Source: a bacterium
Lineage (GTDB): Bacteria > Patescibacteriota > Minisyncoccia > Phycocordibacterales > Phycocordibacteraceae
DNA length: 64,000 nt
NCBI GenBank assembly: GCA_037200965.1
Contig: JBBCGK010000001.1
Coordinates: 544,001-608,000, forward strand
Direction of reading: 5' to 3'
Shown here: positions 3,333 through 60,436 of the stretch, piece after piece
How positions within the stretch are numbered: the first letter of the stretch is position 1
Layout: the number at the start of each line of letters is the position of its first letter
The notes under the pieces: model-generated
What the model was told of the DNA's origin: nothing
The model's input: only the letters and a program-made list of their open reading frames with translations
Databases searched by the model: none
Translations under genes and position numbers: made by a program

Positions 3333-3365
3333 TATGCGGAGTTTGATTCTTGTCTCCTGCGCGCG

Positions 3366-3968: not shown

Positions 3969-4006
3969 ACTTTAATCATATCATTCCTTAATAATTGCGA
4001 CGTAAA

Positions 4007-7588: not shown

Positions 7589-7599
7589 GTGCCTACTCT

Positions 7600-24773: not shown

Positions 24774-25514
24774 ATGATCTCAAGCCTTTTCCACACGTTC
24801 TTCTACGACCCGATCTACAACCTCCTGGTATTTCTCGTATCCGTCGTCCCGCACGGGGACGTCGGTCTCGCGGTCATCGGCGTTACCATACTCGTCCGAC
24901 TCGTACTCCTTCCCTTCTCGCTTTCCGCCTCGAGAACCCAGCGCGCGATGAAGGTGCTTGAGCCGAAACTCAAGGAAATCAAGGAACAATACAAGGACGA
25001 CAAGCAGGAGCAGGCCGCGAAGACGATGGAACTTTATAAGACCGAGCGGGTAAACCCGTTCGCGAGCATCGTGACACTCCTTATACAAATGCCGGTCCTC
25101 TTCGCGCTCTATTTCGTTTTCCTCCACGAGCCGTTTCCGCAGCTAAATGCGCACCTTCTCTATACGGCGACTCCCGTTCCGGAAACGATCTCGCTTCTTT
25201 TTCTTGGGATCGTAAGCGTCCTGGGGCATAGCATCGTGCTCGCGGTTATCGCCGCCGCCGCCCAGTACTATCAGGTCATCCTTGCGGTGCCGAAGCCCAC
25301 TCCCAAGATAAAGGGTGAAGTTCTCAGTACCCAGGAGGAATTCACCCGGATGATGGGCCTCTATATGCGCGTCATCATTCCCGTGCTCATCGGCGTCGTG
25401 GCATACACGACCTCAGGCGCAGTCGCCCTCTATTTCATCACCGGCGCGGTCGTAAGTATTCTCCAGGAGCTGTATATAAAGCGCCAGTTCGACGCGAAGC
25501 CGGTCGCCCTATAA
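24774..25514 (+). CDS. yidC: Membrane protein insertase YidC (short Oxa1-type)
   Basis: 246 aa, 5 TM; conserved TM1 Arg block ILVRLVLLPFS, C1 loop KEIKEQYKDDKQEQ, TM2 PFASIVTLLIQMPV. Confidence 0.85.
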   Translation: MISSLFHTFFYDPIYNLLVFLVSVVPHGDVGLAVIGVTILVRLVLLPFSLSASRTQRAMKVLEPKLKEIKEQYKDDKQEQAAKTMELYKTERVNPFASIVTLLIQMPVLFALYFVFLHEPFPQLNAHLLYTATPVPETISLLFLGIVSVLGHSIVLAVIAAAAQYYQVILAVPKPTPKIKGEVLSTQEEFTRMMGLYMRVIIPVLIGVVAYTTSGAVALYFITGAVVSILQELYIKRQFDAKPVAL

Positions 25515-26774
25515 ATCGTACGCCCAGAGCGAGCCGTCGCGTTTGTTGAGGAACACGAGCACGTCCTTCCGGGGATCGACCGTAAGCGCGGTCGCGTCAA
25601 GCGGCCCGTCCGTCGCTCCCGAGAAATCGAGCGCCAGCTCGGCAAAGCGCCCGCCGACATCTATCTTCCAAATCCGGTCCGTGAACGAAACGGCCCCCTG
25701 ATACCAGTCGTCAGGATAGGTCGCGGTCGCAAGAGATCCCGGAACCGGCACGCCGCAATAGACGGCGCTTTCGTCAGACGTCCACGCGCATTTGTCCGCG
25801 ATCGTCGCGACCGGAAGCGCTATCAGCTCCCGGGTCCTGATGTTCAGAAGCGAAGTCTTCAGATTGCCCTGCTCGGTATAGCTTAAGAGCGCCCAGGTTC
25901 CCAAAGGACTCGGAAGCGCCACGAGTCCCGGCACGGGGCCGAACAGCCGGTTCATGGCGCCCGCGGTGTCGATGAGAAAGGCGTAGCCGCCCGAAAGTCC
26001 GGTCGCTTTCGTATACGCGACGAACTGGCCGCTTCCCGCAGGGCGTGCCGAAAGGCTTCCGAGGGGGGAAGAAAATGCGGTGCGCGAAGCGCTGCCGTCG
26101 GCCTTGGAGACGGTGCCGATGGAGCCGTTGCCGCCGCTTGAAAGCGAAAATACCGAAGATGAGCCGACGGTCGCGATACCCGCGATGTTTACGGGAAGGA
26201 AAAAGCCCTCCGTACCGTCAGCCGGGAGCGCGTAGGTGTCGATCTCCGGGTTTTCCGCGGTGCCGCCGGCGTAGCGAAGATATGCGAGCGACCCGTCGGG
26301 GAGCCACGTCGCTTCCTGAGTTCCCGGGATCGTTTTGTTGACCAGGCGCTTCGCCGCGCGCGCATGGAAGAGATAGGAGAAAAGATTTCCGCTCTCGCGA
26401 AGCGCGTAGCGGACTTCGGTATCGGGGACCGGGAGGCTCACGGTGCTTGTGCCGCTCGCTTCGCCCGCGGGAAGCGGCGCCGTACTGCTTGAAATAAACG
26501 CGACGGCGCCCGGCACCACCGGGCCTTTCGTTATCTCAATGAGCCGTTGCGTAACTACGGTTCCGGCGGCCGCGCCGCCCGTGTCCGGGTCTACGGTATC
26601 GCTTTCGCCTCCCGCAGCGTCCCCTGCGGGGTTTCCGAACGGGTTCGTGCCGGTATCGACGACGAGGGTCGGCGTTCCGGCGAAGATAAAGAAATATGCG
26701 GCGGCGCCGAGGCCTCCAAGGACGATGAGTATCGCGAGGATGATAAGTACGCGCCGCATAATCAGGAATCGCAC
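25509..26774 (-). CDS. N-terminally anchored extracytoplasmic protein, beta-propeller-like repeats (last gene of T4SS-like operon)
   Basis: TM anchor ILAILIVLGGLGAAAYFFIF then low-complexity linker and repeated G-S/T-x-hydrophobic blocks; 13-nt overlap with upstream gene. Confidence 0.4.
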   Translation of the reverse strand: MRFLIMRRVLIILAILIVLGGLGAAAYFFIFAGTPTLVVDTGTNPFGNPAGDAAGGESDTVDPDTGGAAAGTVVTQRLIEITKGPVVPGAVAFISSSTAPLPAGEASGTSTVSLPVPDTEVRYALRESGNLFSYLFHARAAKRLVNKTIPGTQEATWLPDGSLAYLRYAGGTAENPEIDTYALPADGTEGFFLPVNIAGIATVGSSSVFSLSSGGNGSIGTVSKADGSASRTAFSSPLGSLSARPAGSGQFVAYTKATGLSGGYAFLIDTAGAMNRLFGPVPGLVALPSPLGTWALLSYTEQGNLKTSLLNIRTRELIALPVATIADKCAWTSDESAVYCGVPVPGSLATATYPDDWYQGAVSFTDRIWKIDVGGRFAELALDFSGATDGPLDATALTVDPRKDVLVFLNKRDGSLWAYDL

Positions 26775-28039
26775 ACCTTGCCTGGTGCCGCGGACGCAGG
26801 GACGATCTCATCGACATCCGCGCTCGTGAAATCGCATTTGAGGTCGTACACGTTCGCCTTGTATCCAGGATAAGCGGAAACATTCTTAGCCGCGGACTGC
26901 TGCGCCTCCTGAAGACGTTTCGCGCAAAAGGATTTTGTGTCAACCGGGGTACGAGGAGATTCCTCGGTGGTGTCGGGTGTTTTTATCCAGTTGGCGCTCG
27001 CACCGAGGTGGGTTCCGCCGCCGTACACCCAGCAGCTCATTAAGGCCCTCGACTTATCGTTTGAAACGATTGCCTCATCGTCATACCAGTGCCACCAGGT
27101 GAAAACGTAGTATCCTGCCGCGCCGATTTTGACCGATACGGCGTTCGACGCCGACGAACTTACGCCGGAAGCATCTCGCGCTTTGACGGTAAAGGAATGG
27201 TCCGAACCGGCCGCGAGTTTGGAGACGGTGGCGGTCGTGCCTGCCACGGATTGCGCGAGGGTGCCATTGTCATACACGTCGTATGCAGCAGGAGCCGTGC
27301 CGCTCGGGGGGGCTTTCCAGGTAAGGGTCACGCTGGTAAGAGTCTGTGCCGTGACGGTGAGACTTTGCGGTGCCGTATCTCCCACCGTTCCGGTCCCGTC
27401 GCCGTCCCCTCCCGTATTGCCTCCTCCAACCTGGGTACCGTCCGGACTTCCCGTGCCTCCTCCTGTGTTTGAAGAATTGGTCGGCTGCAACTCATACGTA
27501 TTTATTTTAAGGCTCAGAATATCCGGATTTATAATGCTAAATACGAGAAACGGAGCAAGGACGAGCACGAGCCCGATGATCGCTCCGCCGATCTGATCCC
27601 GGCCTTCCGAGTGCGCCGTAATACTGTCGCCGCTCATCACCTTAAAACCGCCAAGCGTGATCATGAGGATGGCGAGAACCGCTGCGGCGCCGATGCAGAA
27701 CTTGTAGAGGCCGTTGAAGAATTCGGCAAGGTTATTCGGGTTTACGTCCGTAAGCCCCGGAACCGCCGCAAGCGGTACGAAAGAGCTTCCTTTTGCTGAA
27801 GATGGGGGTGTAGGTGTTGGGGAGGGAGCCGGAGTCTGTGTCGTTACCGGAACAGTACATTGATACGAATCAGCCGTTTTCCCGGGAAGACCCTTGATGA
27901 GAGCGCAGTTCTCCTCCTTGCCGCCGCATGCGCTGACGCAGGACTTGAGATCCGGATAGGTCGCATAGCTTTCCGCAGCGGCTACGTTCGGGGAAAAGAA
28001 TGCTATGACAATAAAAGCGAGGATAGGAAGATATTTCAT
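26762..28039 (-). CDS. Secreted protein with VirB2/TrbC-like double-TM hairpin fused to fibronectin-III-like domain
   Basis: Signal peptide; Cys-rich segment; hairpin FFNGLYKFCIGAAAVLAILMITLGGFKVMSG...IGGAIIGLVLVLAPFLVFSIINP (two hydrophobic helices with short polar loop); FN3-like SLTVTAQTLTSVTLTWKAP...YDVYDNG...HSFTVKARD. Confidence 0.4.
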   Translation of the reverse strand: MKYLPILAFIVIAFFSPNVAAAESYATYPDLKSCVSACGGKEENCALIKGLPGKTADSYQCTVPVTTQTPAPSPTPTPPSSAKGSSFVPLAAVPGLTDVNPNNLAEFFNGLYKFCIGAAAVLAILMITLGGFKVMSGDSITAHSEGRDQIGGAIIGLVLVLAPFLVFSIINPDILSLKINTYELQPTNSSNTGGGTGSPDGTQVGGGNTGGDGDGTGTVGDTAPQSLTVTAQTLTSVTLTWKAPPSGTAPAAYDVYDNGTLAQSVAGTTATVSKLAAGSDHSFTVKARDASGVSSSASNAVSVKIGAAGYYVFTWWHWYDDEAIVSNDKSRALMSCWVYGGGTHLGASANWIKTPDTTEESPRTPVDTKSFCAKRLQEAQQSAAKNVSAYPGYKANVYDLKCDFTSADVDEIVPASAAPGKVCDS

Positions 28040-29025
28040 AGTCCAAATATACCAGTACCCCCGCTCGTCTCCCCGAAGCTTATGCGCAGCGCACGCGTCG
28101 CCGTTTCAAACAATTGAGGGAGGGTCGCCGTGACGGAAACCGCCGCACTCCCCTTCCCGCCCGTGGAGCGCAGCGTGATAGCGGGGTTGCTGCCGCTTGC
28201 GCCGCTGTTGACGGTCCAGACGATCGCGGGCGTTCGTGCGAATCCATACGGCACCGCGACGAACGTCGCTTCGGCGCCCGGCATGGCGAACTCGTCGCCA
28301 AGCGCGCGGTCGTAGCGGATTCCAAGGAGCGGATCGCTCTCATACACCCGTACGGAAGGGTCTGATGGAGAGATTCGAAGAACGCTATCAGCCACCAATG
28401 ATTGGTCGGGACTCAAGACTGTTACCTCGATCGTTGCGTCGCGGTAGCGGACGGGTGCCGTCATAGAAACAACTGAGCGGCCGATGCCCGAAAGATCCGC
28501 GAGTTCCTGCCCGTTCAGTTTCCATTTATACACGAGCGTACCATCGGTGAATCTTTTCCCGCCGGTTGCTCGCAAGTCGGGAAGGGCGACGAGGCGTACT
28601 TGCCCTTGCGACGGAATACCGAAGCCTCCCGGGTAGAACGGATGGCTTGTTGCCGCAGGCTCTGCAATAAGCGCGACTTCGGCAGGACGCACGGTCTGGC
28701 TTGCGCTGTATGCTTGGCCGCCGATGGTTGCGATCGCTTTCACCACTGTCGCGCTTCCGGCCGCGCCAAGCGTGACCCGCGCCCGCCCGTTCGTCATTGG
28801 AATTTCTTTCCCGTCGGCAAGAATCGTTATGATTGCGGCCGCCAAGTCAATGGAGTTGCTCGACAGGCTTGCCGTTATCGTGTCATAGGGCCGTGGGTAG
28901 TCTGGTGAAATGGCGAGCGTAAGCGCCGGCCCCCCCGTTCCAAAGACGCCCTGCGCGAATACTGTCGCGGGCAACAGAATACCAAGGAGTGCATAAGCGA
29001 AGAAACGCATGTCTTCAGTATACAA
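28036..29025 (-). CDS. secreted hypothetical protein (T4SS-like operon)
   Basis: Signal peptide MRFFAYALLGILLPATVFAQG; no known motif; 4-nt overlaps on both sides. Confidence 0.4.
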   Translation of the reverse strand: MYTEDMRFFAYALLGILLPATVFAQGVFGTGGPALTLAISPDYPRPYDTITASLSSNSIDLAAAIITILADGKEIPMTNGRARVTLGAAGSATVVKAIATIGGQAYSASQTVRPAEVALIAEPAATSHPFYPGGFGIPSQGQVRLVALPDLRATGGKRFTDGTLVYKWKLNGQELADLSGIGRSVVSMTAPVRYRDATIEVTVLSPDQSLVADSVLRISPSDPSVRVYESDPLLGIRYDRALGDEFAMPGAEATFVAVPYGFARTPAIVWTVNSGASGSNPAITLRSTGGKGSAAVSVTATLPQLFETATRALRISFGETSGGTGIFGL

Positions 29026-29039
29026 GCTTTTCGGTATCT

Positions 29040-29531
29040 TCAGGCAGCCTCCTGTGCACTTTCCGTGGTCTCCTCGTTATCGTTTGCCGCCGCCGCTCGC
29101 ATCTCGGCAGCTCCTCGAGCGTATGCATCCGCGCGCCGCCGCTCGGCTTCCTTCGCCTTTATCTCCGCCGCATGGGCCGCATTATATGCGGCGTCCTCAG
29201 TTCGGCTGATGATGATAGTGCTTATAACCCCATAGGTAACGCCGGGCAAGGAATTAAGCAAAGGAGTCGCTTCAAGCACGGCGCTTCCGAGCAGGTTGAG
29301 CAGCTTCGCCGACTTGCCTTTCGTCATCTTTATGCCAAGCAGCGGAAACCACACCAGATAGAAAACGATACCGGCAAAGATCGCCACAAACCAGCTTCCG
29401 ATAAACGCGACGGCATTCCCCACGACCGGAATTGAGTTAAGAAAAAACAGAAAGAATTGAATCAGATCGAAAAGCGCCGCAAGCCCGCACATAAGCGCCG
29501 CCACGAACACTCCGACACGTTTTTGCTTCAT
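29040..29531 (-). CDS. small polytopic membrane protein (T4SS-like operon)
   Basis: 3-4 hydrophobic helices then charged Ala/Glu/Arg-rich tail; start overlaps VirB4 stop by 4 nt. Confidence 0.4.
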   Translation of the reverse strand: MKQKRVGVFVAALMCGLAALFDLIQFFLFFLNSIPVVGNAVAFIGSWFVAIFAGIVFYLVWFPLLGIKMTKGKSAKLLNLLGSAVLEATPLLNSLPGVTYGVISTIIISRTEDAAYNAAHAAEIKAKEAERRRADAYARGAAEMRAAAANDNEETTESAQEAA

Positions 29532-31348
29532 GACGCCCTCCCTCCCTCAAGCCGGTCCTTCTCGCGCTTGATCGAAAGGAGCTGCGAGGGGTCGGACGTG
29601 ATGATCTGATCTTCGGTATACGACGCGACGACCTTTATCGCGACGTGCTTGAGGCCCGCGAAGAAAAGCCCCTCCCCCACTCCCGACTCGAGAAGCAGGT
29701 ATTTCTCCTCGTCCGTGAGGTTGAAGGTTTCCTTGAGAACGTCGATCGAAGTCGGCGATTGCTTGAGGAGCAGCTGGATCGAGGAGTTGTTGAGGATAGG
29801 GCGGCCGTAGGGGGAACGGAGGAAGTCTTCCACGTCCTGCGTGATGGTCGCGACGCCGAGATAGTATTTGCGTCCGCGCTTGGCGAGGGAGTAGAGGAAG
29901 GAGGCCGTATCCTCGGACTTCATCATCCACCACGCCTCGTCGATCACGAGGAGGCGCTTCCGGAGTTCGTGCCGGATCGCGTTCCAGATGAAGTGCGTGA
30001 TGATATACATCGCGATCGGCTTGAGTTCGTCCTCCATGTCGCGGACCGAGAACACGATGAATTGCTTCTTGATGTCGACGTTCGTCGGCTGGTTGAGAAA
30101 CCCCGCCCACGTGCCGTGCGTGTACTTCGAAAGCCGCTGCACGAGGGATTCGCTGCCCTCAAGGCCCGACAGTACCTGCTCGAAGTCGGTGAGAAGCGGC
30201 GGCTCCTGGCCGGTGAAGTCGCTGTCGCCCGTGATGTCTTTGAGGGCGTACGTCTCCCCGATCGCCCGGTCGATAAGCGCGTCTTCCTCGGGCGTGAGGC
30301 CGCCGAGCATGATGCGGAAGAGACCGACGAGCGTAATCGTGTTCGAACGCAGGATATCCCGCGGGTTTTCGTCCTCCTTTACCGGCGGCAGGTCGAACGG
30401 ATTGATGTGATGCTCGCTCGAGAGCGAGATGTTGAACGACCTGCCGTCCGTCGCTTCCGCGAGCTGCTCGTATTCCCGCTCCGGGTCGATCACGATCACG
30501 TCGGTGTCGAACATGAGGGAACGAAGTATCTCGAGCTTGGTGGCATAGGATTTCCCCGAGCCCGACTTCGCGAAGACGACCGAGTTGTAATTCTCAAGCG
30601 AGAAACGGTCGAAAAGGATGAGCGAGGAATTGTGGCGGTTGATGCCGAAGAGTATGCCCCGGTCGCTCGTAAGGTCGAAGGAGACGAACGGGAAAAAACT
30701 CGAAAGCGGCGGCGTATCGAGCTTGGTATTGACGAGCAGCTCGTCGGTGCCAAGGGGAAGCGCGCTGCGGAACCCCTGCTCCTGCTGGAAGAGCGCGGGC
30801 TTGGTGTAGACCAATACCGAATTGAGCCGTCCGGTCACCTCGTTTTCGGTCTTATCAAGCTCGTCCTTCGAGTCGGCGTAGAGCGTCATGTAGAGGCCGA
30901 CTTCGAACAGCTTCTCCTCCGCCCGCTGCAGGCTGTCGCGGAGAGTCTCAAGGTTCTGGTATGACGTATCGAGGAGCGGATCGCGCACCAGTCCCTTGTC
31001 TTCGCGCTCCGATATCTGGCTTTGTATTTCCGCCACCTTTTTCTGGAACTGCCTGAGCGCCGCTTCGGTCTCGACCGGGTGTATGTAGAGCGCGATGTCG
31101 AAAGGTTTGTCGAGGTTCACGATCGGCGAAAGCCAGGAATCCGAAAGCGTGCTCGGATAGCTTATGGTATAGAACGATCGCGCGAATTTCTCGCCAAGCT
31201 CGAGTTCCCGCGCGCTGATCTTAAGCGCCGCGGGCGCGATGGTGTCGACGAGATCGAGCGCGCCCTTCCGGTAAATGTCTTTCGGCAGCACCGGGATCAC
31301 CTCCGGGGTCTGCTGCTGTTTTTTGTTTAAGAAGTCGAGAAGTGCCAT
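29528..31348 (-). CDS. VirB4/TrbE/CagE-family type IV secretion ATPase
   Basis: Walker A VVFAKSGSGKSYATK, Walker B LLVIDEAWWMM, ATITQDVEDF; N-terminal ISARELELGEKFARSFYTISYP block typical of Gram-positive-type VirB4; 606 aa. Confidence 0.8.
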   Translation of the reverse strand: MALLDFLNKKQQQTPEVIPVLPKDIYRKGALDLVDTIAPAALKISARELELGEKFARSFYTISYPSTLSDSWLSPIVNLDKPFDIALYIHPVETEAALRQFQKKVAEIQSQISEREDKGLVRDPLLDTSYQNLETLRDSLQRAEEKLFEVGLYMTLYADSKDELDKTENEVTGRLNSVLVYTKPALFQQEQGFRSALPLGTDELLVNTKLDTPPLSSFFPFVSFDLTSDRGILFGINRHNSSLILFDRFSLENYNSVVFAKSGSGKSYATKLEILRSLMFDTDVIVIDPEREYEQLAEATDGRSFNISLSSEHHINPFDLPPVKEDENPRDILRSNTITLVGLFRIMLGGLTPEEDALIDRAIGETYALKDITGDSDFTGQEPPLLTDFEQVLSGLEGSESLVQRLSKYTHGTWAGFLNQPTNVDIKKQFIVFSVRDMEDELKPIAMYIITHFIWNAIRHELRKRLLVIDEAWWMMKSEDTASFLYSLAKRGRKYYLGVATITQDVEDFLRSPYGRPILNNSSIQLLLKQSPTSIDVLKETFNLTDEEKYLLLESGVGEGLFFAGLKHVAIKVVASYTEDQIITSDPSQLLSIKREKDRLEGGRAS

Positions 31349-31366
31349 GCGTAGTCGTACTATAGC

Positions 31367-32025
31367 CTATGCTTCGAGCCTGATCGGGTTTTCGATCTCG
31401 CCGGGATTGAAGGAACGGTACAGGAGTTCGATCACCTCCTCGGTCCCGAGCGGTATCGCCCGGAGCCCGGTCGCCGAAAGTCCGCTTGAAACGAGCGCCA
31501 TGCGCTGCTCGAGCTGCGCGCGGTCTTCTTCGAACGCTCCCGGCGCCTTCGTTGCGGCGGACGAGGCTTTTGTTCCGCCGAAGATGCCGCCGATCGCGCT
31601 TGCGACCTGTACCCCGGCCCCGGAAGCGTACGGCACGACGATATAGAAGGTTTTCGTCATTATGTTCGCGCGCTCCGTGAAATCGCGTACGAACTCTACG
31701 TACTCGCGAAGCTGTAGCCGCATGAGGTCGGTTTTCTGGGAAGACTCTTTTGTCTCAAGAAGAGCGAGGTACGGGCGGATGTCCATCTTGCGCGAATGGA
31801 CGACGATCTCGACCGAGAAATCGAGCGTGTTGAGAAAATTCTGGAAACCCTCGAGAATGGCGCGCTGCTCGTCGTTTGACTTGAGCGCGAAGTTAAGTGA
31901 CGAGCACATAAGGACTCCCCGGTACCCTCCGTCTTTGAGGGTTATGATGCCGTTCCGGATTTCCTTGACCGGAACGAACTGCTGCGTCGCCTGGCTTTTC
32001 TGGGGAGCTGCCATATCAGGATTCA
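31367..32025 (-). CDS. hypothetical cytoplasmic protein, T4SS-associated (resembles VirB4 N-terminal region); start 32025 or 32013
   Basis: FVPVKEIRNGIITLKDGGYRGVLMCSSLNFALKSNDEQRAILEGFQNFL pattern resembles the first-encounter region of VirB4-family proteins; no TM; no Walker motifs. Confidence 0.35.
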
Positions 32026-32450
32026 TCCTTCCTGTCCTGGACGTCAAGCGACCAGGCAAGGTCCCGGAGCTTGCTTTGCGAGAGTTTCGGAAGCGCCGAC
32101 GGCCGTACTTCCTCGGCCTTGGCGCGGGCGGCCGCGGCGGCAGTCGTCGCGGCCGCCTCGCTCTGGGTCGGGTCGGAATGCCGCCACAGGAAGAGCTTTC
32201 CTCCTCCGTAGAAGCCGATCGCCGCCTCGATAAGCTCGACGAATGACTTGCCGTTCACTTTATAGAATGCGAGCGCTCCCGCGAGCGCAACTACGGGAAT
32301 GCAGAGGATGATGGCGAGGACGAGCGGCAGGGAGAGGATAATGATGGCGCAGAGGCCGCCGCCGCCCGCGATATAAATGAACTGCTTGAGCGTGAGCGGG
32401 CCCACGATCTTGTCCTCCACTTCGATGAATTGGGGTACCGGATACTCCAT
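32016..32450 (-). CDS. PrgI-family / VirB3-like small membrane protein
   Basis: MEYPVPQFIEVEDKIVGPLTLKQFIYIAGGGGLCAIIILSLPLV... N-terminal pattern and 2-TM topology of PrgI (PF12666-like) proteins encoded upstream of VirB4. Confidence 0.5.
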   Translation of the reverse strand: MEYPVPQFIEVEDKIVGPLTLKQFIYIAGGGGLCAIIILSLPLVLAIILCIPVVALAGALAFYKVNGKSFVELIEAAIGFYGGGKLFLWRHSDPTQSEAAATTAAAAARAKAEEVRPSALPKLSQSKLRDLAWSLDVQDRKDES

Positions 32451-32513
32451 TTGCTTCCAGTATATACCAAAAGAGCCGCGCGAAGCGGGCGCTATCCTCT
32501 TCTTCTCCTGTAT

Positions 32514-33092
32514 CTAGTGTTGATCGATCGGCTCGTGATACGGGTCCTCGGCATACTCCTTCACGATCGGGCGCGGCAGCGGCGGGGTCTCAAAGGGAGG
32601 GCGTGTTTCCGGAGTAGCTGGTGGTGTCTGATATTGCGAGACTTCCTTTTGCTGCCGTACGACAGCGTTTTCGGCCCCGGGCAGGTTCGAAGGGGGAGGT
32701 ATTTGTTTTGCGATATGCGTCGGAACTTGCGGCACCTGCCGCATTGATGTGTCCTGCGGCGCTGCTGCGGTTGCCGCGCGCATTTTTGCCTGAAGCGGCT
32801 GGAATACATCCTTATTGATATCCTCGAGGATTGCCTTCAGTATTTCCGGCGCGAGCCCAAGCTCCTCCTGCAGTGATTGTGCGAGTTCTGCCGGTGCTTC
32901 TGTCCCCGTTAATACCAGCATAAGCTCGCGCCGCACCACTGCTCCTTGGTCGACATGGAGCTTGTATTTGGAAGTAATGGCGCGCGCGGTATTTGCAAGG
33001 CCGTCTTGTGCCAGATATTCGCGTATGGGCGGCGGCAATATTTCCATCATCCGTCCTATACTTTCTTCCAGCGTCGGTTCGGTTTCGTTCAT
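32514..33092 (-). CDS. hypothetical protein with Pro-rich C-terminus (T4SS-like operon)
   Basis: 192-aa ORF, no TM, PxxP-rich tail. Confidence 0.3.
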   Translation of the reverse strand: MNETEPTLEESIGRMMEILPPPIREYLAQDGLANTARAITSKYKLHVDQGAVVRRELMLVLTGTEAPAELAQSLQEELGLAPEILKAILEDINKDVFQPLQAKMRAATAAAPQDTSMRQVPQVPTHIAKQIPPPSNLPGAENAVVRQQKEVSQYQTPPATPETRPPFETPPLPRPIVKEYAEDPYHEPIDQH

Positions 33093-33103
33093 ATGTTCTT
33101 TGA

Positions 33104-35107
33104 TTATTTCGCACCCCCCGCGTTTTCAGCCGCCTTTTTGAGAAGCCCCTCGATAGTATCGTATTCTTTTTCGGTTTTCTTCTTTTTTGCCTCGGTTCGG
33201 ATTTTTCGTGCGGCGGCGTTGTCGGCAGCGCGCCCAGGACCGCTGAGCCAGTATGGCTTTTCAAGCGGTATACCAAAGAGGCTAAAGTCTTCTTCAAGAG
33301 CCTGCGCGTACCCTTTCTTTCCTTTCCTGATGATATTTCCGTCCTTATCTTTGATTTCTTCAATACCGATTTGAGGAGCCTTGCTGTACGTGTCGATGAT
33401 TTCATTCTGAGTCTTCTCAACAATCTTATGAGCGGCCTTGGCACGCTCAAGTTCCGCTTTTGCGGCATCGATATCGGCCTGCACGCCGGTCGCTTTTGCC
33501 TTGTCAAGCTTCTCCTCAAGCTCGTCGACGTGTTTCTGCGAGGCGTTTCTTTTAGCGTCCGCCTCGTCAATGATTTTTTGTTCTTCCGGAGTGTTCTTCA
33601 TGCGCTTAGACCGTTCCAGACGTCCCTTTTCAGCGTCCGCTTCCATCTGCCGGTAATTACTCTTCGAGGCAGTACCCAAATCAAGGCCACCTGCCTTAGC
33701 AATTCCCCCAAGGGCTCCGCGCCCGTCGAAAGTCGCTTTCGCGCCTGCATCCGCAACGCGGAAGGCGATGCTATTAACCAGCGGACGCTTGCGCAGCCAC
33801 TCGCTCTTTTCGAACCGCTTGCCAAGGCGGTTGAATCCTCTGCCGATCGTGCGTCGGCCCACGGCTGCGCTGATGCCGAAGAACGCACCGCTGGTGGCTT
33901 TGCTTGCCGTACTCACCGCAAAACCAGCCCCCATCGCGCCGAGTTCCTTGGCCGACATGAGCGCGGCGATCATAAAGCCGATGATGATCGCGAAGGTGAT
34001 GAAAACGCTTACGGAACCGCCCCCCCCGGCCGCAAGCGCGGTCGCGAAACCACCGCCTCCCGCCGCCGCCGAGACCCCCTGGCCGATTTTGAGCCCGATA
34101 AGTGTGAGGAGGAGATAAACCGGAACGAAGAACGACTGGTGGAGTATCGTCGTCCACCATTGCTTCGCATACCCATGGAACATCGGCAGCGCCATGCCAG
34201 CAAAACCGATCGGGGAAAGGACCATCAAAAAAGCGAGCACGACGATACGGACTACGAGCATGATCGCGGCGGCGAACAGAACGACGGCCGCGATCAGCAC
34301 GAAGATGGTCGATAAAATTAAGACAATGACACCGTTGAAATTCCCGCTGAATTTGGTATAGGACTGAAGCCCGTCTTCTCCGAAAATAGTGCCGATGCCA
34401 AGCGTGCTGAGGACCGCTCCCGCAAGGCCGGAATCTGTAAAACAGCTTGCACTATTGCTGCTTTGTATGCTGCAGGTGCTCGAACTTTGGGAACTGATGT
34501 TCGAATAAATAGCGGTCGACAGAAGGTTTGAGCTGTCGATAATCACTTGCGAGATAAAGAGCGAGAAGTTGAGAAGAATCGCGAACAGGAGCAGCTGGGG
34601 CAGTGATTTTTTGAGGCCGTAGTTTTGAAGGCCGAGGATGATGGCGATGCCGATAAAGACAAAGCTGAATATGAGTACGATATTCCCGACGTCGCGCAGC
34701 ACCCCCCAGCCGATTCCGATGCCGGATGCGGTACCGCCGAGCGTCTGGCCGAAGTTGAGGACGCTGTAATAAATAGCCGTATTGAGCAGAATGCCCGAAA
34801 GCCACAGAAGGCCCGATGCGAGCGTAAGAAAAAGATAAGCAATGCTGCCCATCGCGCACGGTACCCACGTGCTTACGCTCCAGATGCTGCATTCGGTTGG
34901 TCCTTTGGTGCCGGACTCAGGGGGTCCCGGTGTCGTTTGCGCGGGCGCTGCCGGAGTATTTGTCGGCGGAGTGGTCGCTGGCGGAGTGGGTGTCCCGAAT
35001 CCGGGCGTCCCGTTTCCGAGTGCGAGCAACGAAAGATTTGTCGCAGACGCTACGCTGGGAAGTGCGAGAATCGCGAGCAACAGAAGCGAAAGAAGGAATT
35101 TTTTCAT
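33104..35107 (-). CDS. VirB6/TrbL-like polytopic membrane protein with Lys/Glu-rich coiled-coil tail
   Basis: Signal peptide, Pro/Thr-rich linker, at least 6 TM helices with conserved W/F-rich loops, about 200-aa charged C-terminal tail; 667 aa; position and topology as for VirB6 homologues. Confidence 0.5.
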   Translation of the reverse strand: MKKFLLSLLLLAILALPSVASATNLSLLALGNGTPGFGTPTPPATTPPTNTPAAPAQTTPGPPESGTKGPTECSIWSVSTWVPCAMGSIAYLFLTLASGLLWLSGILLNTAIYYSVLNFGQTLGGTASGIGIGWGVLRDVGNIVLIFSFVFIGIAIILGLQNYGLKKSLPQLLLFAILLNFSLFISQVIIDSSNLLSTAIYSNISSQSSSTCSIQSSNSASCFTDSGLAGAVLSTLGIGTIFGEDGLQSYTKFSGNFNGVIVLILSTIFVLIAAVVLFAAAIMLVVRIVVLAFLMVLSPIGFAGMALPMFHGYAKQWWTTILHQSFFVPVYLLLTLIGLKIGQGVSAAAGGGGFATALAAGGGGSVSVFITFAIIIGFMIAALMSAKELGAMGAGFAVSTASKATSGAFFGISAAVGRRTIGRGFNRLGKRFEKSEWLRKRPLVNSIAFRVADAGAKATFDGRGALGGIAKAGGLDLGTASKSNYRQMEADAEKGRLERSKRMKNTPEEQKIIDEADAKRNASQKHVDELEEKLDKAKATGVQADIDAAKAELERAKAAHKIVEKTQNEIIDTYSKAPQIGIEEIKDKDGNIIRKGKKGYAQALEEDFSLFGIPLEKPYWLSGPGRAADNAAARKIRTEAKKKKTEKEYDTIEGLLKKAAENAGGAK

Positions 35108-35110
35108 GGC

Positions 35111-36712
35111 TCAGTGGATGACTGGCGAGAGACAAGCATTCGCCTCCTTCACGATATTATTCATCGTGGTTATAAGCGTACCTCCCTCTCCCCCGGAATC
35201 GGTGCTTTGCGTTTCGGCGTCCGCTATTTCGCTCGCGGAAGGCGTGGTTGAAGCAGAAAGGAATTGCTGATAGTTGAGTCCCGCCCGCGCAAGCGCGCCC
35301 GCGGCGGGAACGGAACCGTCCGCAGGCGTTACTTGCTCGGAAAGAATGCCCAGTGTCTGAAGCGAAGCGACGGCCTTCGCATCTGCGGCGGAAGCCTGGT
35401 CTATCACAGGATTCACGACCGTTTCTATCACGGCGCCCGCGTTCGCTCCTTCTTCAAAAGTGCAGGCACCGAAGACAGTATGGCTGTTGGCAGCCTCCGT
35501 GGCCGCCGTCTTTGCCGCATCTGCGGCGGCACCGATCTTCTTCCAGTCGTTCTGATATTTCGTAATTTGCGTTTTTCCTTGCTGGAGCGCTTCCGAGAGA
35601 TTGGATACGACATTCGAGACGTTCCCCGCATCGGCTGCCGCGAGGTCCGGTCGGCTGAAATAATCACTGCCGCCGCCTTGCGGTTTGGAAAGACCCAGGA
35701 AGCCGCTGCCGCCGAGCACGTTCTTGATAAGTCCCTGGAGAACGGCACCGATAATTTCGTCTATCTCGTCGGCCGAGATGACGGAGTCGATCGGGGTGCC
35801 GATCGCCTTGCTCGCGGCGTCCGCGATGACCGAGCCCGGGGTCTCGATATCGTATTCAAGACAGTTTGCACCATTGTCCTTCACGACCGGGTCGGAGAAC
35901 TGGAAGTCCATCGTGCCGTCCGGGTTTGTCGTTACGACCGGGTCGGCCACTTCAACGGTCTGCGGCGCTTGACCTTGCAGTTTGCAGTCGCCGCGCCAGG
36001 AGAGGAAGCCCTTATTCTGAGTTATTTCATCTTTGCTTTGTGTGACTGCCGCAGTCGCCCGGGCGATGAGCTCGTCACGCGCCCGCATCGCGAAGCCCAC
36101 GGGGTTATTCTGGGAATCCATCGTGAACCTGAACCATCCCGAGAGCCCGCCTTTATTGAAATCGAATCCGGAAGATGAAACCGCAACGGTCGCGCTTCCG
36201 AGCGTGCACTGGTTGAGAAGGAAGAATGAGTTGCTCGACGTCGACTTGTAGTAGTCCGCCTGGAGAAGCGCCGCCGTATTTACTTTGAAAGGCAGGTCGA
36301 GTGAGAAGTTACCGATCTGCGAGAAGAATTTCGACGCAACCTGATCGACGATGTTTCCGAGATGCACGTTCAGGTTCACCACGAACGACGGTGATCCGTT
36401 GAAACCGTTGCTCGCCCAACTGACGATGCTTTGCACCATGGCGGCCTTCACTTGCTGCACGACCGCATAAGCGAGCGGATCGAGCACATATTCTTTTATT
36501 TGGAGTGCAAGGGCGTTTTCGGACGTTACGGCATCGGCAGCAGCAGAGATCGTTTGCTTTGCGATTTCGATGAAGGTGGTGGGTGCTGAGTCGCTTGCTA
36601 TGTGCACAGTCTGTGCCTGCACGCGCGAAGAAGCGAAGAGTGTCGGGGCCGCGAGCGAAAGCCCGATGATAAAAACTGCGGCCCGGACGCGACTTGAGGG
36701 GGGTTGCGGCAT
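35111..36712 (-). CDS. secreted hypothetical protein (533 aa; T4SS-like operon)
   Basis: Signal peptide AAVFIIGLSLAAPTLFASS; Ala/Ser/Thr-rich; no known motif. Confidence 0.4.
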   Translation of the reverse strand: MPQPPSSRVRAAVFIIGLSLAAPTLFASSRVQAQTVHIASDSAPTTFIEIAKQTISAAADAVTSENALALQIKEYVLDPLAYAVVQQVKAAMVQSIVSWASNGFNGSPSFVVNLNVHLGNIVDQVASKFFSQIGNFSLDLPFKVNTAALLQADYYKSTSSNSFFLLNQCTLGSATVAVSSSGFDFNKGGLSGWFRFTMDSQNNPVGFAMRARDELIARATAAVTQSKDEITQNKGFLSWRGDCKLQGQAPQTVEVADPVVTTNPDGTMDFQFSDPVVKDNGANCLEYDIETPGSVIADAASKAIGTPIDSVISADEIDEIIGAVLQGLIKNVLGGSGFLGLSKPQGGGSDYFSRPDLAAADAGNVSNVVSNLSEALQQGKTQITKYQNDWKKIGAAADAAKTAATEAANSHTVFGACTFEEGANAGAVIETVVNPVIDQASAADAKAVASLQTLGILSEQVTPADGSVPAAGALARAGLNYQQFLSASTTPSASEIADAETQSTDSGGEGGTLITTMNNIVKEANACLSPVIH

Positions 36713-36714
36713 AG

Positions 36715-37737
36715 TTAATAGCCGTTAACGGGCGAAATGCTGAGAAACTGTGATCCGGGCTCTCCTGCGGGGACGACCACTCCCGCATCCTTGAATGTCT
36801 GTGCCATCGCGACGAACGCGTTGCGCATCGCGATGACGTCGTCAGGATACTTGGCAAGCCCGAGCGAAGTCAGGAGCGGATCGCGATCAAGCGCAGCGAG
36901 CTGTTGTGTCACTGTGCCCATGTTCGCGAGCGCGTTCGCGAGCGCGAGATGTTTCGTCGCGAGTTCCTCGGGTACCGGCACGCTGCTGAGGGCATGTGCT
37001 CCCCCGGTATAGGTCTCGGCGATCTTCCCTATCATGTCGAGCGCCTTTGTGTCGCTTCCACTTATCGCGTCTCCGAGATAGAGGAGCTCGCTCTTTTTTG
37101 AAGGGGCTGTATATCCGGCAAGCGTATTTTCAGCAGCGGCCGCGTAAGTCCGCATTGCTTCCGGGCCGCTTCCCGATACGTTCATTTGCCCGAGCGTAAA
37201 TGCATCCTGTTGCGGCACCGCGCGCTCCAATTCCGAAAGCGCGCTCGCGACGAACGTTGCCATATCGTCCGCGGAAAGAGGCGCTCCCTGATGCGCCGCG
37301 ACGTATTGCGCGAAGAATGCCTGGGCGAACTGCTCGGTGAGGGAGCCGGGAGCTGGCGCTTTCCCCGGAATGTTTTTTGCTATGGTCGAGGAAGCAACCG
37401 AGGATGCCGGTATCGGCGCCTTCGGCACGATAAGTCCCTGCGCGACTGCTTGCGCGTCCGTCATGCCCCGCCCGCCGGTGTCGGTCTTATCCGGATCCGT
37501 ACCGTAGAGCGACTCTTCCCAGTCCGGGAGGCCGTCGCCGTCGGAGTCTTTTACGGCTATGGCCTTGAGGAGATCGTCGGTCGTCCCGGCCTCCGCGTTC
37601 GACGCTTTGAAAAGATGCGGCCACTGCGGGATGAGGTACGCCGCAAACACCATTACCAGGGCAATGGCGAGCGCAACTGGCGTGCTCCATTGTTTCGTTT
37701 TGTTAGTCACACGCGTACCGTAAAGGATAGCACGCAA
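36715..37737 (-). CDS. membrane-anchored protein with thrombospondin-type-3-like Ca-binding motif
   Basis: TM anchor then DSDGDGLPDWEESLYGTDPDKTDTGGRGMTD (DxDxDGxxD TSP3-like repeat); 340 aa. Confidence 0.4.
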   Translation of the reverse strand: MRAILYGTRVTNKTKQWSTPVALAIALVMVFAAYLIPQWPHLFKASNAEAGTTDDLLKAIAVKDSDGDGLPDWEESLYGTDPDKTDTGGRGMTDAQAVAQGLIVPKAPIPASSVASSTIAKNIPGKAPAPGSLTEQFAQAFFAQYVAAHQGAPLSADDMATFVASALSELERAVPQQDAFTLGQMNVSGSGPEAMRTYAAAAENTLAGYTAPSKKSELLYLGDAISGSDTKALDMIGKIAETYTGGAHALSSVPVPEELATKHLALANALANMGTVTQQLAALDRDPLLTSLGLAKYPDDVIAMRNAFVAMAQTFKDAGVVVPAGEPGSQFLSISPVNGY

Positions 37738-37760
37738 GCCCGTTTTACCTCACTATACCT

Positions 37761-38543
37761 TCATGGTGTGTGCATAGCGCTGGCGAGGAGAAGCCATGTG
37801 GAAAGACCCAAATCTTCCGCGCGCGCCTTCTCCGGAACTTCCGCCGCAAGAAACGCATGTTGGATCGCTTCCGGTGCGGCGATTGCCTCCAAATTTCGCG
37901 CCAAAAGCTTCCTTTTATGGGCGAATCCGGCACGGATAGCCGAGAAAAAGGACTCTTCCTGGGCCGTATTCTTGAAATTAGCACGGCCGATGTTTTCTAT
38001 GGTGAGCACGGCCGAGTCTACGGCCGGAGCGGGCACGAACGCGCCTTTGGGGACCGTAAAGCGGTATTTCGGCTCGCCGTACGCCTTCACCGAAAGCGAA
38101 AGCAGGCTCTCCTTCTTGCTTCTGGCGATACGAACGGCCACCTCCTTCTGCACCAGAAGCGTCATCGAGGCGGGCTGGTGCGCGTCGGTAAGGAACCGGC
38201 GCAGGATCTCGCCGCTTATGTAGTACGGAATATTCGCCACGAGGAGATAGCGCTTCGGGAACGCTGCCGTGTCGAACGCGCGGATGTCCTCATGGATAAG
38301 CTCGAGCTTTCCTAAGCCAATCTCCGCGGCGAAGGTTTCCCGGAGTATGGGAATAAGCTCCTTATCGGTCTCGACGGCGACCACATGCCCGGCGCGCGAG
38401 AGGAGTTCCCGCGTGAGAAGCCCGGTTCCGGGACCGATTTCAAGTACGGTGTCTTTGGGGCCGATGCCCGCGGCATCCGCGATGCGTGCGGCAATCGAGG
38501 CGTGCATGAGAAAGTGCTGGCCGAGCGATTTCTTCGCGCGCAT
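37761..38543 (-). CDS. rsmA: 16S rRNA (adenine1518-N6/adenine1519-N6)-dimethyltransferase
   Basis: KSLGQHFL, SAM motif VLEIGPGTGLLT, NIPY motif; 260 aa. Confidence 0.85.
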   Translation of the reverse strand: MRAKKSLGQHFLMHASIAARIADAAGIGPKDTVLEIGPGTGLLTRELLSRAGHVVAVETDKELIPILRETFAAEIGLGKLELIHEDIRAFDTAAFPKRYLLVANIPYYISGEILRRFLTDAHQPASMTLLVQKEVAVRIARSKKESLLSLSVKAYGEPKYRFTVPKGAFVPAPAVDSAVLTIENIGRANFKNTAQEESFFSAIRAGFAHKRKLLARNLEAIAAPEAIQHAFLAAEVPEKARAEDLGLSTWLLLASAMHTP

Positions 38544-38546: not shown

Positions 38547-38840
38547 TTAGAAACTCCGGCGCTTTAACGCGCGAAGCAGGTCCGGCCCGTATCCCTGGCT
38601 TCGATGCCGCAGAACCAGGACGATCAGTTCGTCTTTTTTGCACCGGCGGATGGCCCGCCAGTCTCCGACCCGGAGGGAGCGATAGTCCGAAAGCGGGTAC
38701 CCGAGAGGCTTCCCGGGAAGCGCCATGCGCGCATACTGCTGTTCGATAGACGTATGTACGCACTTCCATACCGAAGCGTCGAGACTCCGCGCGTCTTTGG
38801 CAATAACCTCGCTATGATAGCTAACGCGCCACGCGCTCAT
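38547..38840 (-). CDS. RelE/ParE-family type II toxin (ATG at 38840; ORF-track extension to 38927 unlikely)
   Basis: C-terminal PLSDYRSLRVGDWRAIRRCKKDELIVLVLRHRSQGY matches the RelE/ParE core; start overlaps antitoxin stop by 20 nt. Confidence 0.7.
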   Translation of the reverse strand: MSAWRVSYHSEVIAKDARSLDASVWKCVHTSIEQQYARMALPGKPLGYPLSDYRSLRVGDWRAIRRCKKDELIVLVLRHRSQGYGPDLLRALKRRSF

Positions 38841-39102
38841 CGTGCAATTTGCGCCAGAGCGCGTCTGCCTCGCCCGCGCTGAGGTATTTCGTGCCCGGGG
38901 CGGTACGTTCCTTGAGCATCTTCGCAAGCGCCCGCTGCTCTTTCGGCGTTATATATTCGAATTCTTCTTCCGCAATAGCCGCGTCAAGCATTCTGGCGGC
39001 GATGGTGGCGCGCGGAGTCCGTTCCCGCTTGGCGCGAAGGGAGAGCGCCCGCGCGGTCGACGGCGCGAGTGTCACCAGCATGCGCTCCTTGGTTGTCGCC
39101 AT
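38821..39102 (-). CDS. Ribbon-helix-helix (CopG/ParD-like) antitoxin
   Basis: 93-aa protein, N-terminal MLVTLAPSTARALSLRAKRERTPRATIAARML beta-strand plus helix RHH pattern; immediately upstream of toxin. Confidence 0.55.
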   Translation of the reverse strand: MATTKERMLVTLAPSTARALSLRAKRERTPRATIAARMLDAAIAEEEFEYITPKEQRALAKMLKERTAPGTKYLSAGEADALWRKLHDERVAR

Positions 39103-39145
39103 ATATCAAAAGTGTATCACCTGCTCCGCGCGTGCGCAACCGGAA

Positions 39146-43495: not shown

Positions 43496-44446
43496 TATCG
43501 CACTAACATATCGAACACTCTTGCAGTCGAGCATACGGCGTCTTGAGCTCGATGCCAAGGTGCGGCCGTTCGTGGTTGTATTCGCGCAGAAAGGCCTGAT
43601 ACTGGGCATTGAGGTCCTCCATTGAAGCGGGCTTTTTCATGAAGCGCCAGAAGAACTCCTCCTCGTCGGTGCGGAATGACCGCTCGATGACCGCGTTCTC
43701 ATTCGGGTTCGCCTTGTGGATGAAATGATGCTTCCAGCCGAGTTCCCCAGTCACGAAGGCGCGGAAGCGGCTCTGGAACTCAAGGCCGTTGTCGGTCTGC
43801 ACGAAATCCGGTACGAACGGCAGCGAAACCGTCCGCAGGGCCTCGATGGAGAAGTCCTGCACGAGCTCGGGGAAGATGACGCCAGCTTTGTATCGGCTCC
43901 AAATATCAATGACGGCATACAGATACAGGGTATGCGGGAGCCCCGACAGCTCGGGCGTCACGTACTTCACATCCATCTGAAGCTTCCCGGGCGCGGTCAC
44001 GTTCTTGAGATACATATGCGTGGTCTCCTGATATCTCGGCCGTCGGTATGACGCGCCTTCCAGTATATGACCTTTCGCTTTGAGGAAGCGATGGATGGTC
44101 GCCGGGTGCTCGGAGAGGCCGAGCAGCACTTTGAGCTTGCGCGCCCCGTATCCTTTCTCTTCGCGCAGGCGCAAGAGCGCCTCAGCCCGCTCTCCCGAGA
44201 GCGTCCTGCGGCGAAGACGCTTCGGTCTTGTCGACTTGCGGACAAGCTGCCGCGTCGAGAGCGCAAACCGGCTCCGGATGCTCCGGGCTCGCTTCTTCCA
44301 GAACACCACCGTGCCCGGAGATATGCCGAGTGTCCGTGCGGTTTCGCGCACCTTTCCTCCCGACTTCTTCAATTTCCTGATGATTTCCCTGGGTTCTTTG
44401 CGCATATCCTCCTTAGTATTAGGGAGTGTTCGATATGCAGTGCGAC
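43496..44446 (-). mobile_element. IS481-family-like insertion sequence (about 951 bp) with terminal inverted repeats and 5-bp target duplication
   Basis: IRs TCGCACTAACATATCGAACACTC (43498-43520) and reverse complement of 44423-44445 (21/23 identical); direct repeat CTTAA at 43491-43495 and 44447-44451; single DDE transposase inside. Confidence 0.7.
43503..44405 (-). CDS. DDE transposase (HTH + rve integrase core), IS481-like
   Basis: N-terminal HTH ETARTLGISPGTVVFWKK; DDE core DVKYV...LYLYAVIDIWSRY...VQTDNGLEFQS...ANPNENAVIERSF. Confidence 0.8.
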   Translation of the reverse strand: MRKEPREIIRKLKKSGGKVRETARTLGISPGTVVFWKKRARSIRSRFALSTRQLVRKSTRPKRLRRRTLSGERAEALLRLREEKGYGARKLKVLLGLSEHPATIHRFLKAKGHILEGASYRRPRYQETTHMYLKNVTAPGKLQMDVKYVTPELSGLPHTLYLYAVIDIWSRYKAGVIFPELVQDFSIEALRTVSLPFVPDFVQTDNGLEFQSRFRAFVTGELGWKHHFIHKANPNENAVIERSFRTDEEEFFWRFMKKPASMEDLNAQYQAFLREYNHERPHLGIELKTPYARLQECSIC

Positions 44447-60184: not shown

Positions 60185-60197
60185 CCAGCTTCTTGAA

Positions 60198-60434: not shown

Positions 60435-60436
60435 GG

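Follow-up and report, generated by a model that had tools for sequence, protein, structure and literature searches.

VirB4 was found in 2,417 of 3,035 Patescibacteria genomes, where it forms a monophyletic clade nested in the MPF_FATA type of type IV secretion system (T4SS) (Quinonero-Coronel et al. 2025, PMC12102498). According to the same survey, TrsD is the most abundant associated component, PrgI/VirB3, VirB6 and VirB2-like pilins are encoded near virB4, relaxases are almost absent, and type IV coupling proteins (T4CPs) are rarely nearby. The T4SS locus of Paceibacteria lies near dnaA, dnaN, ksgA, rnpA and rpmH, with KsgA as a frequent neighbor of VirB4 (PMC12102498). In Southlakia epibionticum, transposon sequencing found the T4SS genes and pilins to be essential for epibiotic growth, and its authors noted that this T4SS has no coupling and relaxase proteins (Wang et al. 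2023, PMC10633639). A 2025 review describes these systems as a recognized new branch of the T4SS superfamily (PMC12857230). Here we analyzed a 64,000-nt stretch of a Patescibacteria chromosome (GCA_037200965.1, contig JBBCGK010000001.1, positions 544,001 to 608,000, hereafter the window) and describe the T4SS locus that it carries on the minus strand, downstream of rsmA (ksgA).

Very probably, this locus is a chromosomal, vertically inherited T4SS of the Patescibacteria clade in a Paceibacteria (Kaiserbacteria-like) genome, derived from the conjugation machinery of monoderm MPF_FATA systems. Our high confidence applies to the identity of the system, not to its substrate. The locus holds the gene content by which such a system is recognized: virB4 with adjacent trsD, prgI and a VirB2-like pilin gene, no relaxase, and a chromosomal position near dnaA and ksgA. 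An earlier note on this stretch, made from the letters alone, had read it as a streamlined, CPR-type (candidate phyla radiation) T4SS-like apparatus and had left its function open. That reading is supported and matches the literature (PMC12102498, PMC10633639), though it undersold how well such systems are documented. The parts with named counterparts in other T4SSs are as follows.

33104 to 35107, minus strand: extended VirB6/TrbL-like polytopic protein, 667 aa (TrbL matches of orthologs, topology, context).
32016 to 32450, minus strand: PrgI/VirB3-like membrane protein with two transmembrane (TM) segments, 144 aa (Pfam PrgI, PF12666).
31367 to 32026, minus strand: TrsD-like protein, 219 aa when begun at the ATG of 32026, with the open reading frame (ORF) reaching 32059 (230 aa) (matches to the VirB4 N-terminus).
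29528 to 31348, minus strand: VirB4 ATPase of the CD1110/MPF_FATA type, 606 aa (NF045971, Walker motifs).
26762 to 28039, minus strand: VirB2-like T4SS pilin core, 425 aa (T4SS_pilin matches of orthologs, signal peptide and hairpin).

The 606-aa protein matched NCBIfam NF045971, the VirB4-like conjugal transfer ATPase of the CD1110 family, with 385.5 bits against a cut-off of 325 (4.7e-115). It also matched the VirB4 model of the Mycoplasma integrative and conjugative element (ICE), the TraC and VirB4_CagE models, and Pfam P-loop_TraG (3.5e-26). HerA/DUF87 reached merely 32 bits and FtsK gave no match in the Pfam and NCBIfam scans, so the check on the ATPase family that the earlier note had proposed came out for VirB4. 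Both motifs that it had quoted, Walker A AKSGSGKS and Walker B LLVIDEAWW, can be read in the 606-aa translation. Among solved structures, VirB4 of the Gram-positive T. pseudethanolicus is the best relative, represented by its C-terminal domain (4AG5, E = 2.9e-43), with R388 TrwK at 3.3e-5. More than 8000 VirB4 homologs were found; the best 120 are 81 to 100% identical and all about 605 to 615 aa long, and among these 120 the named sources (about a third) are all patescibacterial or an unclassified "bacterium". The closest relatives are Kaiserbacteria/Paceibacterota proteins.

The 606-aa VirB4 covers positions 179 to 733 of the 752 in NF045971 and is without the first ~180. The 230-aa protein, which had been left unassigned, matches the N-terminal part of VirB4: positions 1 to 120 of the CD1110 VirB4 model (2.4e-7) and positions 99 to 233 of VirB4_plasma, the Mycoplasma ICE VirB4 model (E = 1.5e-11). 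It also has a precomputed match to the TraC-like Pfam PF26593, and its match to the TrsD model NF041427 is weak (5.2e-4, 19.9 bits, cut-off 200). VirB4 is therefore split, with its N-terminal and ATPase domains in two polypeptides, an arrangement like that of TrsD/TrsE in pGO1. Judging from these matches, the 230-aa protein is TrsD-like, a separately encoded homolog of the N-terminal part of monoderm VirB4.

We compared the locus with 80 related loci from Kaiser-, Nomura-, Taylor-, Yonath- and Campbellbacteria and other Paceibacterota, using iterative profile searches to score gene presence; the denominators given are the loci with enough flank. The TrsD-like gene precedes virB4 in 59/59 loci, with a median identity of 55%. 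This, together with the uniform length of the best 120 VirB4 homologs, shows that the split is not a sequencing artifact. A frameshifted VirB4 pseudogene was likewise considered as the cause and rejected, as the split is kept in all relatives. The prgI gene was also found in all 59 loci, directly upstream of TrsD. Its 144-aa product passes the PF12666 gathering score (43 bits against 27, 6.9e-11) and has a TM hairpin at residues 23 to 66. PrgI/VirB3 is the presumed membrane anchor for VirB4.

The 667-aa protein has a signal peptide, a conserved Cys pair, ~6 to 7 TM segments (residues 84 to 392) and a charged coiled-coil tail of ~270 aa. It thus shows the topology by which VirB6 is recognized, at least five TM segments inside a T4SS locus, and its gene shares the strand of prgI, from which it lies ~650 nt upstream. 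The window copy has a faint match to ICE_Mbov_0396_TM (E = 0.054). Among 48 orthologs, 9 match Pfam TrbL PF04610 (best 1.9e-7) and one matches TrbL_4; the family profile found no VirB6 chain and nothing meaningful in the PDB. We call the protein VirB6-like because of transitive homology through its orthologs, its topology and its context, and not as a demonstrated member of the family. The public annotation starts this gene 85 codons later (582 aa), whereas only 3 nt separate the start of the 667-aa ORF from the upstream stop. The annotation has probably made the protein too short, since the longer ORF provides the signal peptide, and M1 and A22 are kept in at least 90% of the orthologs.

The 425-aa protein has a signal peptide and a two-TM hairpin at residues 107 to 177 (TMs 107 to 137 and 148 to 177), to which an N-terminal Cys-rich insert, a C-terminal FN3 domain (fn3, 2.2e-8) and a Cys-containing tail are added. 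Among 49 orthologs, 42 match T4SS_pilin PF18895 (best 3e-11) and 15 match TrbC/VirB2. The protein is VirB2-like through these orthologs, and its polymerization into a pilus is predicted. Conservation in the family is confined to the hairpin region (24% coverage), and ortholog lengths range from 140 to 439 aa. The appended domains differ between genomes: FN3 occurs in the window copy only, and in single orthologs its place is taken by a YkuD (L,D-transpeptidase) or VanY (carboxypeptidase) domain. The pilin gene is single-copy in 64 of 65 loci.

The earlier note had listed a PrgI-like two-TM protein, a pilin hairpin fused to FN3 and a small polytopic membrane protein (the 163-aa protein described below), and all of these are present. 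Its VirB6/TrbL-like assignment of the 667-aa protein was partly right: the polytopic topology with a charged tail stood, and the family match holds for orthologs and not for the window copy. The membrane-protein models that it had named as a check gave a graded answer, with PrgI passing directly, the pilin through most orthologs, and VirB6 only transitively.

The gene set is syntenic in the 80 related loci, with order and strand kept, which had been the note's remaining check; none of its three checks thus spoke against its reading. Full collinearity was seen in 65 of 79 loci, and in the only rearrangement the pilin and propeller genes have traded places. Measured against the window proteins in the same loci, VirB4 has a median identity of 74%, DnaA of 55%, RsmA and UvrD of 50%, YidC of 44%, and the extracytoplasmic proteins of ~28 to 33%. 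By this measure, the constraint on VirB4 is unusually strong, and the surface parts are fast-evolving. That VirB4 changes more slowly than DnaA speaks for a role at the housekeeping level. The GC content is 0.565 to 0.598 across 26 to 38 kb and 0.528 in the bin with the 3' end of the cluster, against ~0.56 for the window; it is native, as had been stated. Pfam scans of the 47 window ORFs found no T4CP (VirD4), relaxase, VirB11, VirB9/10 or lytic transglycosylase, again as claimed. We regard the system as vertically inherited and strongly constrained because of the native GC content, the VirB4 and DnaA identities, the patescibacterial homologs, and the lack of relaxase, T4CP, VirB11 and lytic transglycosylase in the window.

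These data bear on whether the locus could instead come from an integrated conjugative element, as its mating-pair-formation module or a decaying remnant, and not be a native machine of the chromosome. Its VirB4, PrgI and TrsD are homologous to conjugation proteins of CD1110, pGO1 Trs and the Mycoplasma ICE, and mobile-element genes lie elsewhere in the window (an IS3-type transposase at 43.5 kb, and recombinases of the tyrosine type at 52 kb and of the serine type at 61.5 kb). However, the locus itself has no relaxase, T4CP, integrase or repeat boundary, its GC content is native, and all reading frames of the cluster are intact. Further, its position from uvrD/rsmA to yidC/dnaA is shared across genera, VirB4 is more conserved than DnaA, and VirB4 tracks taxonomy with rare inter-class transfer (PMC12102498). 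We consider an integrated element hardly credible. The pairing of relaxase and coupling protein that marks a conjugative T4SS was not found within the window, and conjugation is rejected because the locus has neither, is chromosomal and vertically inherited, and is highly constrained.

The other proteins of the T4SS locus are listed below.

36715 to 37737, minus strand: 340-aa bitopic membrane protein (TM prediction, TSP3_bac).
35111 to 36712, minus strand: 533-aa secreted protein, predicted to be mostly alpha-helical (signal peptide, AlphaFold2 model).
32514 to 33092, minus strand: 192-aa cytoplasmic protein (no TM predicted).
29040 to 29531, minus strand: 163-aa membrane protein, small and polytopic, with a charged tail (hydrophobic segments at residues 5 to 70).
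28036 to 29010, minus strand: 329-aa secreted protein (324 aa at these coordinates) with three tandem Ig-like/FN3-like beta-sandwich domains, hereafter the triple-Ig protein (predicted structure, pLDDT 91).
25509 to 26759, minus strand: 421-aa bitopic protein (416 aa at these coordinates), the last gene of the run, hereafter the propeller protein (TM and TolB-like profile).

The 340-aa protein has an N-terminal TM at about residues 17 to 40, a TSP3-type Ca-binding motif at residues 64 to 82 and an extracytoplasmic domain of ~250 aa. The TSP3_bac score of the window copy is 22.4 bits, below the gathering score, and 20 of 43 orthologs match (best 2.8e-10); apart from the Ca-motif, the family profile found no relative in the PDB. 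The 533-aa gene sits directly upstream of the VirB6-like gene, and its product has no Pfam, NCBIfam or PDB sequence match. Its AlphaFold2 model, built from 18 homologs, is poor (pLDDT 53.9) and confident only in a C-terminal helical bundle at about residues 370 to 530. Foldseek searches of the PDB with this model gave non-significant helical-bundle matches only (E ≥ 0.2), among them R388 stalk chains at a probability of 0.12 to 0.25, which we do not count as evidence. As a secreted, helical protein encoded upstream of virB6, it was considered as a VirB5 analog and rejected, having no sequence or fold support. It was also considered as a VirB1 of the NlpC/P60 type and rejected, having no invariant His.

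In the 192-aa protein, a conserved N-terminal domain (~100 aa) is followed by a Pro-rich linker and a C-terminal DPYxE motif (DPYHE here, DPYRE in most orthologs), in which D183, P184, Y185 and E187 are invariant in an alignment of 44 orthologs. Neither it nor the 163-aa protein has a family or PDB match. The 4-nt ATGA overlap suggests that the 163-aa gene is translationally coupled to VirB4. The sequence of this family diverges fast and its position is kept; jackhmmer detected it in 34/60 loci, always directly downstream of virB4. The triple-Ig protein ends in a conserved C-terminal G-I-F-G-L tail. The propeller protein has an N-terminal TM, a low-complexity linker, a beta-propeller-like ectodomain of the TolB/PD40 type, and an invariant Cys pair (C324/C335). 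The profile of its 61 orthologs matches TolB beta-propellers in the PDB (best E = 4.4e-4, several more TolB entries below 0.02), and two orthologs match PD40 and one DPPIV_N. The ectodomain looks like a TolB-type propeller rather than an NTF2 fold, as far as the profile goes. No sequence-level match to a VirB8-like (NTF2-fold) or VirB1-type part was found among the cluster proteins.

The conservation pattern divides these genes into two modules. Module A, beside yidC-rnpA-rpmH-dnaA, comprises PrgI/VirB3, TrsD, VirB4, the 163-aa protein, the triple-Ig protein, the VirB2-like pilin and the TM-anchored propeller. Besides prgI and trsD, found in every locus, both the triple-Ig and the propeller genes are present in 60/60 loci and the pilin gene in 57/60. 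Module B comprises the TSP3 protein (340 aa, 43/59), the 533-aa protein (45/59), the extended VirB6 (46/59) and the 192-aa protein (46/59), and is contiguous with module A here and in ~78% of relatives. In 13 loci of one subclade, genes for TIM, PGK, RecJ, RNase H, ComEC and an M50 peptidase lie upstream of prgI instead of module B (L001, L002, L003, L006, L011 to L013, L015, L017, L020, L030, L031 and L034; in L001, positions 1 to 9000). The system is therefore modular.

Module A alone might then be the T4SS, with the 340-, 533-, 667- and 192-aa genes forming an unrelated envelope set in an origin-proximal syntenic block. The replacement of module B by glycolysis, RecJ and ComEC genes in 13/59 loci speaks for this, as does the fact that the 667-aa protein of the window itself matches no TrbL; moreover, the whole uvrD-to-dnaA neighborhood is syntenic, so that co-location alone is weak evidence. 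On the other side, nine of the 48 orthologs of the 667-aa protein do match TrbL/VirB6 and one matches TrbL_4, and 304 of 480 detected VirB6 homologs are encoded near virB4 (PMC12102498). The module B genes are joined by junctions of only 2 to 11 nt and lie 63 nt from module A on the same strand, and there would be no precedent for a T4SS that has no VirB6-type channel. We therefore judge it very unlikely that module B is unrelated, and treat the two modules as one machine.

The run as a whole consists of 12 ORFs, unbroken on the minus strand from 25509 to 38543. It spans 13,035 nt, and the source record's public gene calls contain the same 12 genes, in place of the 14 genes and 13.6 kb given earlier. 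The single strand was borne out by the ORF call, and so was the tight spacing that the note had described as ATGA overlaps or gaps under 65 nt: ATGA overlaps join VirB4 to the 163-aa gene (29528 to 29531) and the 329-aa to the 425-aa gene (28036 to 28039), and the remaining gaps are 1 to 63 nt. The widest (32451 to 32513, 63 nt) lies between the 192-aa gene and prgI, and the others are 1 to 23 nt. A hairpin in the widest gap is no better than shuffles (z = 0.42). The first gene of the run had been counted in the machine's operon.

37761 to 38543, minus strand: rsmA/ksgA, 16S rRNA dimethyladenosine transferase, 260 aa (Pfam RrnaAD, 3.7e-48).

This gene is a housekeeping neighbor and not a part of the machine, which leaves 11 T4SS-locus genes downstream of it. 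It lies upstream of the first of these, the 340-aa gene, at a distance of 23 nt, and is probably co-transcribed with the T4SS genes. It adjoins the cluster in 41/59 related loci, some with extra genes between. At the other end, the 3' end of the propeller gene overlaps the convergent yidC (24774 to 25514) by 6 nt. The flanks are thus uvrD, which carries an intein, and rsmA on one side, and yidC followed by rnpA, rpmH, dnaA and dnaN on the other, which makes the locus origin-proximal. In the related loci, yidC adjoins in 59/60 and dnaA is present in 55 to 57 of 80. No tRNA or Rfam matches were found within or beside the cluster.

Several other features were observed around the locus. The UvrD/PcrA helicase (997 aa, 39146 to 42139, minus strand) carries its intein (Hint and Intein_splicing) at residues ~250 to 617, between the N- and C-domains of the helicase. 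The interval between uvrD and rsmA (38547 to 39145, ~600 nt) holds a 126-aa TTG ORF with a weak ParE-toxin match (E = 1e-3), for which the public annotation has a 93-aa gene; a homolog of this ORF was found in 0/80 related loci. In related loci holding both genes, uvrD and rsmA are mostly tens of nt apart, though in a few the distance is several hundred. The window also contains a PilB-like type II/IV secretion ATPase (7600 to 9276, plus strand; T2SSE, 2.1e-107) within 20 kb of the T4SS, from which we deduce that the genome also encodes type IV pilus machinery, and a biosynthetic penicillin-binding protein (PBP1) at 14285 to 16372. Between 16000 and 20000, beside dnaN, the GC content falls to 0.45 to 0.46 against ~0.57, and a beta-lactamase-family gene (16988 to 18406) and a DUF4145 gene (18916 to 19566) lie there; this stretch is possibly a horizontally acquired insert. 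Outside the T4SS locus are also an IS3-type transposase (43503 to 44405), a tyrosine recombinase (52071 to 53168) and a large serine recombinase (61479 to 62804), the last adjoining a cluster of three tRNAs (60114 to 60675). These are possible mobile elements.

Taking into account what is known from studied T4SSs, we propose that the split VirB4 (TrsD and the 606-aa ATPase) would dock at the membrane via PrgI/VirB3 and, by homology, would form the membrane translocon together with the VirB6-like polytopic protein. By the same reasoning, VirB4 may then build a pilus or conduit by pulling the VirB2-like pilin out of the membrane. Those ends of the pilin that face outward would display domains that vary by lineage, here FN3. 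The extracytoplasmic proteins (Ig-repeat, propeller, TSP3 and helical) may be wall-spanning or host-contact parts that replace the undetected VirB8, VirB1 and adhesins. A bolder version, which we hold to be doubtful, is that the triple-Ig, TolB-like propeller, TSP3 and 533-aa proteins form, in a monoderm T4SS that bears a pilus, an undescribed envelope-spanning or host-contact assembly in their place, with a pilin scaffold displaying swappable domains (FN3, YkuD, VanY) on a conduit that extracts nucleic acids from the host.

Our committed guess is that the machine is not conjugative and would work at the interface of epibiont and host. The function that we favor is that of a pilus-based conduit acquiring host macromolecules such as nucleic acids, which is plausible though short of probable. 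A 2026 preprint described uptake of host RNA and, at the parasite-host interface, tubular structures that may be T4SS pili, and left the mechanism open (bioRxiv 10.64898/2026.06.21.733656). Export of effectors into the host is possible, if on the unlikely side, and adhesion as the only function appears quite unlikely.

The machine might also be mainly a DNA-uptake or competence apparatus like H. pylori ComB or archaeal Ced, which are VirB4-driven, use pilins and have no T4CP. VirB4 is the sole ATPase at the locus, which has neither T4CP nor VirB11, and import of DNA or other macromolecules has been proposed for the Patescibacteria T4SS (PMC12102498). Partial matches to the archaeal DNA importers CedB (2e-9) and CedD point the same way, but they are confined to the shared P-loop region and lie far below the cut-offs. 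Similarly, comEC lies just upstream of prgI in 13 related loci, but this adjacency is restricted to one subclade. In Southlakia, comEC is needed for transformation and is not essential, whereas the T4SS is essential (PMC10633639, PMC12857230); the essential role is therefore not ComEC-dependent DNA uptake. We consider a mainly DNA-uptake apparatus unlikely, and a T4SS at the epibiont-host interface remains our preferred reading.

A number of points weigh against the reading of the locus as one complete T4SS of this kind. The 667-aa window copy gave no TrbL/VirB6 match at E ≤ 0.1 in the Pfam scan, and the T4SS_pilin score of the 425-aa pilin itself, 22.8 bits, is below the gathering score of 26.6; with ~250 extra residues, this pilin may not polymerize like canonical VirB2. 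Six of the 11 proteins are without a family-level assignment, and four (533, 340, 192 and 163 aa) are without a reliable fold. As 13 loci have no module B beside module A, it is co-location in the other loci that ties module B to the same machine. A single transcript is unsupported, since scans for promoters (5 sites, 5.4 expected) and terminators (29 sites, 22 expected) gave no more than the level of shuffled sequence. Genes for a coupling protein or a relaxase may lie beyond the window, and VirD4 homologs are found elsewhere in most Patescibacteria genomes (PMC12102498). Finally, no Paceibacteria T4SS has been the subject of any experiment.

Few machines have been shown to be essential to the epibiotic life of CPR bacteria, and the Patescibacteria T4SS is among them; this locus is a clean, complete Paceibacteria example with a defined list of 11 gene parts. 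For those who study the machine, its practical value lies in the co-conserved triple-Ig and propeller proteins, the variable pilin domains and the constraint on VirB4.

Compared with the T4CP-less T4SSs (H. pylori ComB, archaeal Ced and Bordetella Ptl), the locus shares VirB4 as the sole ATPase, a VirB2-like pilin, VirB3/VirB6-like parts, and a chromosomal, non-conjugative nature. ComB and Ptl differ in being diderm systems with a VirB7-10 core. Ced differs in using CedA/CedB and type IV pili, and the similarity of our locus to CedB/CedD is limited to the P-loop region.

With the monoderm MPF_FATA T4SSs (pGO1 Trs, pIP501 Tra, pCF10 Prg/Pcf, the C. difficile CTn of the CD1110 type and the Mycoplasma ICE), the locus shares a CD1110-family VirB4, a PrgI-type VirB3 and the absence of the outer-membrane core proteins VirB7, VirB9 and VirB10, and with pGO1 it shares a separately encoded TrsD. 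Unlike these systems, it is not on a mobile element, and no relaxase, T4CP (PcfC/TrsK), VirB1-type hydrolase (PrgK/TrsG), recognizable VirB8-like protein (PrgL/TraM) or PrgB-type adhesin was found. Its VirB2-like pilin is missing from the Gram-positive systems.

The closest likeness is to the Patescibacteria-clade T4SSs (PMC12102498), including Southlakia SEML1_0006-0019 (PMC10633639), with which the locus shares VirB4, an adjacent TrsD, PrgI/VirB3, a VirB6-like protein and a VirB2-like pilin, no relaxase or nearby T4CP, and a chromosomal position near dnaA, dnaN, ksgA, rnpA and rpmH. It differs in having no peptidase or lysozyme gene downstream of virB4, and in its one pilin gene with FN3 and Cys-rich domains, where Saccharimonadia and Microgenomatia have arrays of 2 to 11 short pilins. 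The triple-Ig, TolB-like propeller, TSP3, 533-aa and DPYxE proteins are not characterized in PMC12102498 or PMC10633639. Taken together, this kind of system is already known and cataloged in close relatives and is not a new kind. What is new, a modest novelty, is the accessory parts list, the co-conservation of the triple-Ig and propeller proteins, the two-module organization and the variable domains appended to the pilin.

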